A stretch of DNA of 64,000 nt from the NCBI GenBank assembly GCA_038315875.1, contig JBBQAG010000001.1:523-64522 (forward strand), in the 5' to 3' direction. A model generated the notes under the pieces. It saw only the letters and a list, made by a program, of their open reading frames with translations. It was not told the DNA's origin and ran no database searches. Origin of the DNA: Sphingomonadales bacterium. GTDB lineage: Bacteria > Pseudomonadota > Alphaproteobacteria > Sphingomonadales > Sphingomonadaceae. The stretch's first letter is position 1. Each line of letters starts with the position of its first letter. Positions 13,409 through 18,908 of the stretch are shown here, piece after piece. The translations under genes were made by a program, and so were the position numbers.

Positions 13409-13426
13409 AATTTGTCCGGACATATT
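13409..13426. promoter_or_regulatory. Palindromic operator copy 1 (AATTTGTCCGGACATATT)
   Basis: 18-bp near-perfect palindrome abutting a plausible -35 TTGCAT (13426-13431), 16-nt spacer, -10 TAGCCT (13448-13453), upstream of the DUF1838-like gene. Confidence 0.75.
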
Positions 13427-15212: not shown

Positions 15213-17867
15213 TCAGAAGTTGAACGTCGCCTCTACGCCAAAGGTGCGGCCCTTGCGCAACGCAGTGAAAAAGGCCCGTGGCGCGCCGGTTTCGATCTGC
15301 GCCGGGCGGCCGTCAAAAGTGACCGTGGCTGCAGCGGGCAATCCGGTCGTCCCCGCGCCGTAGCGATAATCGAACCAGCGCGTGGCAAGTGGCGCTGAGC
15401 TCTCGTCGGTCAGGTTACGGACAAAGCCGGCAATGCTGAACTGGCCCGAACGGATGCCGATCCGGCTGTTGGCGACGAAAGCATCGCCAACGCTTGCCAG
15501 ATTGTCGACCTGCACGAACTTGTGCGCTTCATAGCTGAAATTGGTGTTCGCCCAGAGCGACAAATTGCCCCGGAGCGGCACCGTGTAAGTAGCGTTGCCA
15601 TTGACGGTGACGGGAGAGCCGAGCGGCAGCGTCTTGCCTGAGATGCTGCACAGCGGCGCTGCGGCAGCGGTTGGGTTGCGGGTATCGAAATTGGGTCGCA
15701 GCCCACCTGAGTTGAGGATGAACTGATCCGCATCACAGCCCGAGGTGAAGCGTGCATCCACGAACGAGAAGCCGAAGCCAAGGTTCAACCGATCGCTTGG
15801 CGCCGCCTGGACTTCGAGTTCAAAGCCGCTGGTGCGCGCATTGCCCTGGTTGGTGACGATCGACGTGATCGCCCCGGTCCCATTGGGGTTCGGGATCGCT
15901 GTCGTCAGCTGGACATCGGTCAATTGCGTCGTGAAGGCCGAGAACTGAACCCGAAGGCGATTGTCGATCAGCGAAAATTTCGTGCCGATTTCGAACCCTT
16001 CGGATTTTTCCGCCAGATAGTTGACGAAATTCTGCCCGGTCTGAGTGCTCGCCGTCACGCCGGCACCGCCATTGAAGCCGCTTGGTTTGCGGCCTTGAGC
16101 GTATATGCCGTACAACAAGAGGCCGCCGGGCGTGGTGTAGTTGATCGTGACGCGCGGCGTCGTGCCGGTGTCCTTGTTCTCTGGCAGACAATTGGCGGTG
16201 GTGAATGTGCCGAACACGTTGCTCGTGCCGGCATAGCCCGCGCAGAACAGCGGTGCCGACGCGAAATCAAGCGATTTGCGCGTTTCCTCGGCATAGCGGA
16301 CTTCGCCGGTGATCGACAGGTTCTTGGTGATATCCCAGGTCAGCAGCCCGAAGACCGCCATGTTTTCCAGCTCGTTGCGGTTCGAACCGATTGCGCCGAG
16401 CGGATCACCGACGATTGGATTGGCGAAGGTGAGATCGCGCCCATCGGTTTTCTGCTTGAAATAATAGCCGCCAATCAGGCCGTGGACGGGATAGGTGGTT
16501 GGCGACGCGATCCGGATTTCCTGGCTGAAATCATAGCCGTCGTTGCGCGTGGTGTTGGCAAAGGCAGGTTCGGTGACCAGCGGATTGGGCGCAGTACCGC
16601 CGATCGCGGGATTGGTGTTGAAGTAGAAAAACGACTCGCTGTGATCGGAATCGGTACCGAACAGGTTATTGTTCGCTCGATATCCCGAAAGGCTCGAAAA
16701 GACGAAGCCAGAGCCAAGAATATCCCAGTCGACGATCGCCGTGCCGTAATATTGATCGTTCTGGATGCCGTCAAAAGCGGTGCCGTCATAAACACCGCTG
16801 ATCGTCGGCGTACGAAAATTTGGCGGCTGGCCGGTAAAGCCAGGGATCGTCACCGCGATTGGATCGGTATTCAGGCGGATATTGTTCGGCTGCGGCTTGA
16901 TGGTGCCGCAGAAATACTGGTTCGTATTCGTCGACGTGCCAAGCGTTGCCGGGATGTAGGGCAGCGCACTGGAAACGGTCCGATAGCGCGCAGAACGGAA
17001 GCCGGGTGCGCAATTATTGTCGGCCGCCCCTTGCAGGAACAGCGCCAATGGTCCGTCGCGGTTCTGCTGATATTGGCCGCGCAGCCGGATCTTGAGGTCG
17101 TCGCTCGGGGTGAAGTTGAGCAGCGCATAGAACGAGTCGGTGCGCTCATTACCCACCTTTCGGCCCGTCAGCTGGTTGGTATATTGACCGCCATATTCAT
17201 AATGACGCCCGCCAACGCGAAATCCGAGCAGACCGGGAATGATCTGTCCGGAAATAGACGCCGACACCGTGTATTCCTTATACTCGGCAACCGAAGCACG
17301 GCCCGATACCGTGAGATGCTCGGTCGGGTCCTTGGTGATGAAGTTGATCGCGCCAGCATAGGTATTGCGACCGTAGAGCGCCGATTGCGGCCCCTTGATC
17401 ACTTCGACGCGCTGCAGCGATTCGGGATCGAAGCCCTGGATGTCGCCCTGATAGTAAATGCCATCGACGAAATAGGCAGCGCCCGATTCGACGCCGAACT
17501 GGACGTTGGCGAGCACGTTGGAGGCGCCGCGGACTACCGGGCGATCAGAGGAGCGACCGAACGCCTGGCTGAAGCTGATACCCGTCGCCTGCTTGGCGAA
17601 ATCATCGATGCTGTTCAGGCCGAGTGTCCGGATTTTCGCATCCGACAGCACCGACACTGACACTGGCGCCTTTTCGATGCTTTCTTGAATTTTGCGCGCG
17701 GTGACGATGATGTCTTCAAGGCCAGACTGGCCTGCCGGCATCTCCTCGACGGCCGGCGCTGCCGATGTCGTAGCCGGCGCCTGCTGCGCCGATGCAGCAC
17801 CCGGCATCATCGCAACGGAGCCCAAGGCCGTTGCCGCCATCAGCGCAATTCGAGTTACCCCCCGCAT
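15213..17867 (-). CDS. TonB-dependent receptor
   Basis: Signal peptide; EDIIVTARK; plug motif YFVDGIY...RVEVIKGPQSALYGRNTYAGAINFITK; beta-barrel; C-terminal GRTFGVEATFNF. Confidence 0.95.
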   Translation of the reverse strand: MRGVTRIALMAATALGSVAMMPGAASAQQAPATTSAAPAVEEMPAGQSGLEDIIVTARKIQESIEKAPVSVSVLSDAKIRTLGLNSIDDFAKQATGISFSQAFGRSSDRPVVRGASNVLANVQFGVESGAAYFVDGIYYQGDIQGFDPESLQRVEVIKGPQSALYGRNTYAGAINFITKDPTEHLTVSGRASVAEYKEYTVSASISGQIIPGLLGFRVGGRHYEYGGQYTNQLTGRKVGNERTDSFYALLNFTPSDDLKIRLRGQYQQNRDGPLALFLQGAADNNCAPGFRSARYRTVSSALPYIPATLGTSTNTNQYFCGTIKPQPNNIRLNTDPIAVTIPGFTGQPPNFRTPTISGVYDGTAFDGIQNDQYYGTAIVDWDILGSGFVFSSLSGYRANNNLFGTDSDHSESFFYFNTNPAIGGTAPNPLVTEPAFANTTRNDGYDFSQEIRIASPTTYPVHGLIGGYYFKQKTDGRDLTFANPIVGDPLGAIGSNRNELENMAVFGLLTWDITKNLSITGEVRYAEETRKSLDFASAPLFCAGYAGTSNVFGTFTTANCLPENKDTGTTPRVTINYTTPGGLLLYGIYAQGRKPSGFNGGAGVTASTQTGQNFVNYLAEKSEGFEIGTKFSLIDNRLRVQFSAFTTQLTDVQLTTAIPNPNGTGAITSIVTNQGNARTSGFELEVQAAPSDRLNLGFGFSFVDARFTSGCDADQFILNSGGLRPNFDTRNPTAAAAPLCSISGKTLPLGSPVTVNGNATYTVPLRGNLSLWANTNFSYEAHKFVQVDNLASVGDAFVANSRIGIRSGQFSIAGFVRNLTDESSAPLATRWFDYRYGAGTTGLPAAATVTFDGRPAQIETGAPRAFFTALRKGRTFGVEATFNF

Positions 17868-17925
17868 CGACTATCTCCCCCGAGTTTAAATCCCTTGTCA
17901 TGTAGACTTTCATTCCGGCATAAAC

Positions 17926-17937
17926 TTGTCCAGACAA
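17926..17937. promoter_or_regulatory. Palindromic operator copy 2 (TTGTCCAGACAA)
   Basis: About 59 nt upstream of the receptor start; extra CTTGTC half-sites at 17894 and 17940. Confidence 0.75.
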
Positions 17938-18106
17938 ATCTTGTCCTGGAGAGTGTAAGCGAATGGAGTGTTGCCGAACTGTTACACTCCACTCCCGGGC
18001 AATGCGTTGGCGCGAGGGGAATGACGATGCAGGATCGACACCCGCCTTTTAACGGCGTCCAGTGGCCGGCGAATGGCTTGGTTCGAGCCAAGGGGAGGCC
18101 TCCCCA

Positions 18107-18538
18107 ATGAGCACGGCGCTATTCAACGCCTATGCCGCTGCCTAGAGCACGGGCCGGGCAGAGGCGATTACCGACTTTTGGGATCGTTCAGCATTTCGCT
18201 TTTACAAGGCAGAAGAGGTGGCCGATATCTTCACCACCTGGGAAGAAGTCGAGCGGTACTGGCACGGCAATGAGGCGATGCATGAAACCGTGCGGCTAGG
18301 TTTTTCCGATATCATGCCCGTCCCGCTGGATGGCCGGTTCAGCCTGCTGATCGCGCGGATGCGCTGGGATATCCGTTTTGCAACCAGCGCGCCTGCCGCC
18401 GTTGCCGGGCGAGCGATGGGCGGTGACAATCATGTGGTTGCGTTGATCGCGGGCGATAGTTTTGCTGGCTGGTGCGAGGCGCCTGATGCCGCGATCAGCT
18501 ATATCCGGCGGCTGTATGAGGATTCCGCACGGCTTTAA
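18107..18538 (+). pseudogene. NTF2/SnoaL-like frame interrupted by an in-frame TAG (18143-18145)
   Basis: SD GGAGG then ATG 18107: MSTALFNAYAAA*STGRAEAITDFWDRSAFRFYKAEEVADIFTTWEEVERYW..., continuous with ORF 18218-18538. Fold assignment is by pattern only. Confidence 0.65.
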
Positions 18539-18574
18539 ACTTTGGCGCTTGCGTCGTTCCGGCGGTTAGGTAGC

Positions 18575-18586
18575 TTGTCCGGACAA
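18575..18586. promoter_or_regulatory. Palindromic operator copy 3 (TTGTCCGGACAA, perfect)
   Basis: Overlaps a plausible -10 TAGCTT (18571-18576), with -35 TTGCGT (18549-18554) and a 16-nt spacer; 16 nt before the DUF1330 start. Confidence 0.8.
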
Positions 18587-18602
18587 ATTGGGAGCCCGAT
18601 CG

Positions 18603-18908
18603 ATGCCCGCCTACATGATCGTGACCGCCAAGATCGCCGATCGCGAGGCATTTATCGGCGGCTATGGCCAGGCGGCGGCCAAGCTCGTCGCTCAATTCGG
18701 CGGCAGATATGTGCTGCGCGGGCCCGGCGTGTCCTTGCTGGAGGGCGATTTCGGCGAGGGCGCATCAATGGTGATTTCCGAATGGCCCGATCGTGCGGCT
18801 GCCGAGGCATTCTGGAACTCGCCCGATTATGCCGAGGTGAAAAAACTGCGCGCAGGCATCGCCGATTGCCAGGTGCTGCTGATCGAGGCACCGACGATCA
18901 ATGGCTGA
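18603..18908 (+). CDS. DUF1330 family protein
   Basis: MPAYMIV...FGGRYVLRG...LEG...VISEWPDRAAAEAFWNSPDYAEVKKLR. Confidence 0.88.
   Translation: MPAYMIVTAKIADREAFIGGYGQAAAKLVAQFGGRYVLRGPGVSLLEGDFGEGASMVISEWPDRAAAEAFWNSPDYAEVKKLRAGIADCQVLLIEAPTING

Follow-up and report, generated by a model that had tools for sequence, protein, structure and literature searches.

An in-frame amber codon at an invariant tryptophan interrupts an NTF2-like gene in a TonB receptor-linked operon of a Sphingomonadales draft genome

In a draft genome of a Sphingomonadales bacterium, a conserved gene for a 143-residue NTF2-like protein is interrupted, 12 codons from its start, by a single amber codon at a position where every aligned relative has tryptophan. 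The gene lies within a stretch of 64,000 nucleotides that was analyzed as a whole (hereafter, the window). We think it reasonably probable that the interruption is a genuine and very recent nonsense allele (TGG>TAG) of a real gene, which annotation represents only by a downstream fragment. An error in the consensus sequence is the main competing explanation, and we weigh it below against the other nonsense codons of the same assembly.

Results

A single amber codon in an otherwise intact frame

The frame opens at ATG 18107 and closes with TAA at 18536-18538, and the TAG at codon 13 is the only in-frame stop among its 143 codons, the translation around it reading MSTALFNAYAAA*STGRAEAITDFW... 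(the asterisk marks the stop; feature coordinates are collected in Table 1). The Shine-Dalgarno-like GGAGG ahead of the ATG is enclosed by a perfect palindrome, GGGGAGGCCTCCCC (18092-18105), and a small hairpin over the ribosome-binding site is predicted, although the leader fold as a whole is ordinary (z = -0.39). This palindromic stretch is particular to the window lineage and is missing from the orthologous locus L005. An Rfam search near the leader gave no match near the gathering score, and a promoter scan of 17800-18700 did not find a sigma-70 consensus site. Past the TAG the frame offers a single start codon, GTG 18218, directly abutted by AGAGG without a spacer. The ORF listing of the window shows only the 106-codon ORF from this GTG, and the corresponding entry in the protein collection, P0002, is its truncated 106-aa product, which is without helices 1-2 of the protein and without the invariant FRFYKAEE motif. 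A first-pass annotation of the window, made from the letters alone, had extended this ORF upstream to the ATG and its GGAGG, had recognized the TAG as the sole interruption and as one substitution away from TGG, and had expected an automated annotation to truncate the gene; each of these points is borne out by the sequence and by the homologues described next.

The read-through translation matches 40 database proteins, most of them 141-150 aa long and covering 90-100% of the query. All 34 homologues that were aligned are full length (138-178 aa, 43-76% identity), and the column of codon 13 is Trp in 34/34. The 37 residues encoded upstream of 18218 carry eight of the 23 invariant columns of the family (W13, W25, F30, Y33, K34, A35, E36, and E37). 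A profile search of 1.8 billion representatives returned 150 proteins at E <= 0.001, and nearly all of the full-length hits begin at profile positions 1-5. Among the checks put forward in the first-pass annotation were the residue of homologues at position 13 and whether homologues begin at 18218; homologue starts coincide instead with ATG 18107, none starts naturally at 18218, and the shorter database entries checked (P0036, P0039, and P0040) derive from contigs of 647-3,152 bp.

In three orthologous loci (L005, L006, and L007) the DNA has GCC TGG in place of the GCC TAG of the window, so that a single G>A transition at 18144 accounts for the lesion and places an in-frame stop, as in a pseudogene, at a site that is a sense codon in orthologues. 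Elsewhere the frame is well preserved. The window retains the family residue at all 22 other invariant columns and at 16 nearly invariant ones, and there is no indel relative to its closest homologue. Locus L005, used as an outgroup, is equidistant from the window copy and from the intact L003 copy (69.2% identity each), which argues that the window lineage has not accelerated and carries no extra divergence. The NTF2-like gene evolves faster than the rest of its cluster, at 69-75% identity between loci versus 73-92% for the neighboring genes; this holds for each of the three pairs compared, one of which consists of two intact copies. Because there is no decay beyond the stop, the TAG change is either very recent or not real.

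A second copy of the locus from this species was not found by exact-pattern scans of metagenome and genome contigs, in which the variable base was set to R, or by exact look-ups of the neighboring DUF1330 protein and of P0002. Further, the gene is absent from 24/24 same-genus genomes and was found in only one genome of another family of the order, so that there is no close outgroup.

Table 1. Coordinates of the features discussed (window positions unless a locus or a contig of the assembly is named)
Feature	Position	Strand	Basis or remark
Full-length 143-codon NTF2-like gene, single interruption	18107..18538	+	Frame, 34 homologues, AF2 model, fold matches
In-frame amber TAG at invariant Trp13 codon (TGG); changed base 18144 (G>A)	18143..18145	+	Homologues and orthologous DNA
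GGAGG, Shine-Dalgarno-like, 8-nt spacer to ATG 18107	18094..18098	+	Sequence
Truncated 106-codon GTG ORF, residues 38-143 of the real protein	18218..18538	+	ORF list; P0002
Operator-like palindrome TTGTCCAGACAA, copy 2, divergent TonB-receptor/NTF2-like intergenic region	17926..17937	.	Kept in L003, L004, L005, L006, L007, L093, L095
Perfect palindrome TTGTCCGGACAA, copy 3, 16 nt before DUF1330 start codon 18603	18575..18586	.	Kept in L003, L004, L005, L006, L095
DUF1330 gene, next in operon	18603..18908	+	PF07045, E = 1.8e-22; syntenic in all orthologous loci
TonB-dependent receptor, divergent	15213..17867	-	Plug and TonB_dep_Rec_b-barrel; syntenic in L003, L005, L093, L095
CN_hydrolase gene	L003:4865-6004, L093:4865-6004, L095:4871-6004	5' of NTF2-like gene	Orthologous loci
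trpE (anthranilate synthase component I), locus L010, TAG	C28:16226	+	TAT>TAG at conserved Tyr, GGVGYF to GGVG*F
recJ, TAG	C128:2563	-	RecJ: single Pfam domain spans stop
TspO/MBR gene (tspO), TAG	C85:2390	+	Single Pfam domain spans stop
GSDH-type glucose/sorbosone dehydrogenase gene, TAG	C130:2061	+	Single Pfam domain spans stop
117-aa membrane protein gene, TAG	C93:8096	+	Homologue has Trp at site (W>*)
~560-aa membrane protein gene, TGA	C40:20224	+	In-frame stop, otherwise intact

Fold and family of the repaired protein

With the stop replaced, an AF2 model built on a 35-sequence alignment is of high confidence (pLDDT 94.8, pTM 0.86) and consists of helices at residues 2-14, 18-22, and 45-58, after which come four long strands and a helix at the C terminus. 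A fold search of the PDB with this model gave 315 matches at E <= 0.001 (TM as high as 0.73), and 49 of the 50 top matches are NTF2-like proteins or enzymes, the exception being a de novo designed curved-sheet protein (5trv). Matches include 3b8l (Novosphingobium), 3cnx, limonene epoxide hydrolases, SnoaL-type cyclases, and CaMKII hub domains, and the model together with these matches displays the alpha+beta cone of the NTF2-like superfamily.

Sequence searches did not place the protein directly in a described family. In Pfam it matches 0 families at E <= 1, and is thus not a direct member of SnoaL_3; its close relatives P0041 and P0046 match no family at E <= 0.1; and a sequence profile search of the PDB returned only noise. 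Among 10 sampled hits of the family profile, however, eight match SnoaL_3 (PF13474), and six of them reach its gathering score of 22 bits, at 23-36 bits; the E-values of these six in the family-profile search range from 2e-27 to 2e-6. The link to SnoaL_3 is therefore one of transitive homology between sequences rather than of direct membership, and the NTF2/SnoaL-like label given in the first-pass annotation is right at the level of fold and by this indirect route, with no Pfam threshold passed by the protein itself. We conclude that the protein is a cytoplasmic member of the NTF2-like superfamily related to SnoaL_3. The family, a small one for which Pfam has no model, is marked by a distinctive invariant motif, with a polar set that comprises Y33-K34-A35-E36-E37, N55, R86, R90, N108, and E124, and it is a candidate new family of NTF2-like enzymes or accessory proteins. 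An enzymatic or enzyme-accessory role is presumed because of the conserved polar pocket residues and the gene context.

Operon context and the CN_hydrolase partner

The NTF2-like gene is the first gene of a conserved, putatively repressor-controlled catabolic/uptake operon beside a divergent TonB-dependent receptor. On the plus strand it is followed by DUF1330, two VOC/glyoxalase, MFS, YCII, and Zn-dependent dehydrogenase genes, and on the minus strand the order is DUF1838, a hypothetical gene, and the TonB-dependent receptor; both orders are kept in diverged loci.

In three orthologous loci (L003, L093, and L095), a gene for a CN_hydrolase of 377-379 aa with a twin-arginine-like N-terminal leader lies 5' of the NTF2-like gene, the two genes sharing 4 nt, and in another (L094) a Peptidase_M28 gene has the same 4-nt overlap with the NTF2-like gene. 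The arrangement with the CN_hydrolase suggests, from gene layout, translational coupling. This partner is absent from the window (17868-18106) and from L005 and L006. A tblastn search of the 240-bp intergenic region gave no significant match to a CN_hydrolase remnant, and in a DNA alignment of the region only the operator/leader part is shared. An orthologue was not found elsewhere in the assembly either, the best match being a 26% paralogue on contig C35. Loss of the partner may have relaxed selection on the NTF2-like gene. Loci L005 and L006 have no CN_hydrolase, yet their NTF2-like genes are intact, and loss of the partner alone thus does not make the gene dispensable.

Operator-like palindromes

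The palindrome TTGTCCNGACAA occurs in the window at 13412-13423 and in two further copies (Table 1) that flank the NTF2-like gene. A scan allowing up to two mismatches gave 16 matches compared with 8.3 +/- 3.1 in shuffles. Copies occur at equivalent positions in L003, L005, and L095, where the flanking intergenic DNA diverges, and the placement of the gene between operator copies 2 and 3, which had been remarked on at first reading, is conserved in orthologous loci for both copies. With a conserved copy in its promoter region, the NTF2-like gene would belong to a putative TTGTCCNGACAA regulon. The downstream genes may have a regulated promoter of their own at copy 3, because that copy sits 16 nt before the DUF1330 start codon; any polarity of the early stop would then be limited.

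A gene for a LacI-family regulator adjoins an operator copy in one orthologous locus (L095:136-1155, minus strand), and an orthologue with 62.5% identity lies on another contig of the present genome (G000 C143:17061-18053). The regulator is a candidate for the repressor that would act at the TTGTCCNGACAA palindrome, of which perfect copies were also seen on contigs C17 (1828 and 2596) and C35 (12201). A second conserved motif in the receptor/NTF2-like intergenic region, GAGTGTTGCCGAACTGTTACACTC (17967-17990), contains the inverted repeat GAGTGT...ACACTC; its core, TGTTGC..AACTGT.ACAC, is retained in L003 and L005, whereas L095 preserves it less well, and the motif could be part of a promoter or a second protein-binding site.

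Nonsense codons elsewhere in the assembly

The assembly is a draft of 2.6 Mb in 166 contigs and is 92.7% complete. Broken genes were sought in two ways, by a codon-usage scan of the whole assembly that took the best of six frames, and by a tblastn comparison that took its queries from the ORFs in 1.54 Mb of a same-genus genome (G001). A genome scan based on GC3 only was dropped, as it was dominated by antisense shadow frames. Counting the NTF2-like gene, at least seven conserved genes carry in-frame stops, of which six are TAG and one is TGA (Table 1). At the trpE site relatives read TAT, and a stop occurs in 0/23 of them. In two lesions the ancestral codon could be read from orthologous DNA, and these are TGG>TAG in the NTF2-like gene and TAT>TAG in trpE.

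No internal frameshift was present in 420 orthologue-like comparisons with G001, which cover ~150,000 aligned residues, and thus the assembly is not riddled with indels. Two frameshift-like cases with multiple HSPs proved to be over-extended reference ORFs and were set aside. The only remaining frameshift-like break lies at the extreme end of contig C79 (positions 1-144), where it is probably a contig-end assembly artifact.

TAG terminates 359 of 1675 long coding-like ORFs (21%). The release factor gene prfA (RF1) is intact, scoring 479.9 bits against an NCBIfam cut-off of 423 bits and having no internal stop, and loss of RF1 was rejected on that ground. In this 92.7%-complete assembly, no tRNA with a CUA anticodon is among the 44 tRNAs called by aragorn or the 61 calls made at relaxed thresholds. 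As far as an assembly of that completeness tells, TAG is read as a stop in this organism.

Origin of the amber codon

The account that we favor, as probable, is that a single G>A change at 18144 turned the invariant Trp13 codon TGG into amber TAG in a real gene, and that the TAG is presumably carried by the cells and is not an assembly artifact. Translation from ATG 18107 would then halt after 12 residues, TAG being an ordinary stop, and a restart at GTG 18218 would yield a 106-residue fragment with very little prospect of folding or functioning. The gene would be a very young pseudogene, or a null allele in the dominant strain of the sampled population.

A less likely but entirely possible explanation is that the cells carry TGG and a functional gene, the A at 18144 being a product of the sequencing, of mixed strains, or of the polishing of a draft assembled from a metagenome. 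The lack of any other decay in the gene is equally compatible with such an error and with a very recent mutation, the draft is fragmented into its 166 contigs, and the break at the end of C79 is typical of contig-end artifacts. However, the rest of the assembly speaks against it. At ~1 consensus error per 0.1-1 Mb, of which ~4% make a stop, we would expect ~0.1-1 nonsense codons (our own estimate); the at least seven that were found would need, by a further estimate of ours with ~4% of random coding substitutions being nonsense, about one substitution error per 15 kb, a rate unusual for a short-read consensus, whereas long reads should bring indels, of which there is none internally in ~150,000 residues. 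Further, TGG>TAG and TAT>TAG differ in their base change, so no single systematic error accounts for both. Seven nonsense codons in excess of what we would expect from short-read consensus error, an absence of indels, and dissimilar base changes together favor real alleles, and most of the seven stops are probably real.

Functional amber suppression or readthrough, in which a suppressor tRNA or a leaky TAG still gives the full-length protein, was considered because the first five interrupted genes to be found all had TAG. In its favor, six of seven stops are TAG and lie in genes, trpE and recJ among them, that are otherwise intact, and the gene for a suppressor tRNA could be in the portion lacking from an incomplete assembly, which is without several expected tRNAs. 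Yet from codon usage alone TAG is expected in 60% of one-step nonsense mutations, and the probability of at least six in seven is then 0.16; the TAG share therefore fits codon usage and is no evidence for recoding, and with the TGA in the seventh gene it led us to downgrade a TAG-specific mechanism. RF1 is intact, no CUA tRNA appears even at relaxed thresholds, TAG ends 21% of genes, and the residues replaced differ (Trp here, Tyr in TrpE), so that no one inserted amino acid would restore all of the proteins. Programmed recoding, by suppression or of the Pyl type, likewise finds no support, there being no CUA tRNA in the assembly and the replaced residues not all being alike (Trp, Tyr, and Trp). 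We regard suppression as very unlikely, and give a similarly slight chance to a specific form of it, a natural amber suppressor encoded on an unassembled replicon or prophage, or present as a modified tRNA, that keeps the TAG-bearing genes partly functional; if that form were true, the strain would be a wild amber-suppressing alphaproteobacterium. The order proposed in the first-pass annotation, with a recent mutation or a sequencing error ahead of readthrough, thus holds.

The notion that the 106-codon ORF from GTG 18218 is the true gene, and the upstream 111 nt an open non-coding leader, merits next to no credence: gene callers do report that ORF, but it is refuted by the alignment of full-length homologues, which all cover residues 1-37 with their eight invariant residues, and is further disfavored by profile hits that start at positions 1-5, by the short contigs behind the shorter entries, by a GTG without a spaced ribosome-binding site, and by an AF2 model in which helices 1-2 are needed to close the NTF2 cone.

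Discussion

A conserved gene with an internal stop that annotation truncates is a feature of an ordinary kind, and a specialist will find it unsurprising. It nevertheless has practical consequences. The real product of the locus is the 143-residue NTF2-like protein and not the 106-residue fragment in the database, and the gene is due an internal-stop flag. With the gene that heads the receptor-linked cluster probably null and its usual CN_hydrolase partner missing, neither step should be counted in pathway reconstructions from this MAG. More broadly, the presence of at least seven nonsense-interrupted conserved genes bears on either the quality or the biology of the genome, including auxotrophy: the amber codon in trpE, if real and unsuppressed, predicts that the organism cannot make its own tryptophan.

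The favored reading, a recent nonsense allele, resembles bacterial pseudogenes flagged by annotation pipelines such as NCBI PGAP, in which a single nonsense substitution in a conserved gene leaves a truncated product from a downstream start. The present case differs from the typical one in that the stop lies just 12 codons from the start, where the upstream piece is too short for detection by ORF-based or coding-potential methods; the lesion was found only by reading the frame upstream, and was confirmed by homology.

Natural amber-suppressor strains are known, for example, those with supE/supF-type suppressors in coliforms. The present genome is like them in having several in-frame TAGs in otherwise intact genes, but it is unlike them in that the tRNA searches turned up no suppressor, RF1 is intact, the excess of TAG is within mutational expectation, and one of the stops is TGA.

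The protein itself is best compared with the SnoaL_3 (PF13474)/DUF4440 branch of NTF2-like proteins, with which it shares the alpha+beta cone, the three N-terminal helices packed on a curved sheet, and a conserved Trp in helix 1. Against solved structures, among them 3b8l (Saro_3538, Novosphingobium), 3cnx (SAV_4671), 3er7, and the limonene-1,2-epoxide hydrolase 1nww, the repaired protein reaches TM 0.6-0.73 with a match probability of 1.00, yet identity is only 8-18%. The window family is set apart from this branch by its own invariant polar set and, in several loci, by the 4-nt overlap of its gene with the gene upstream.
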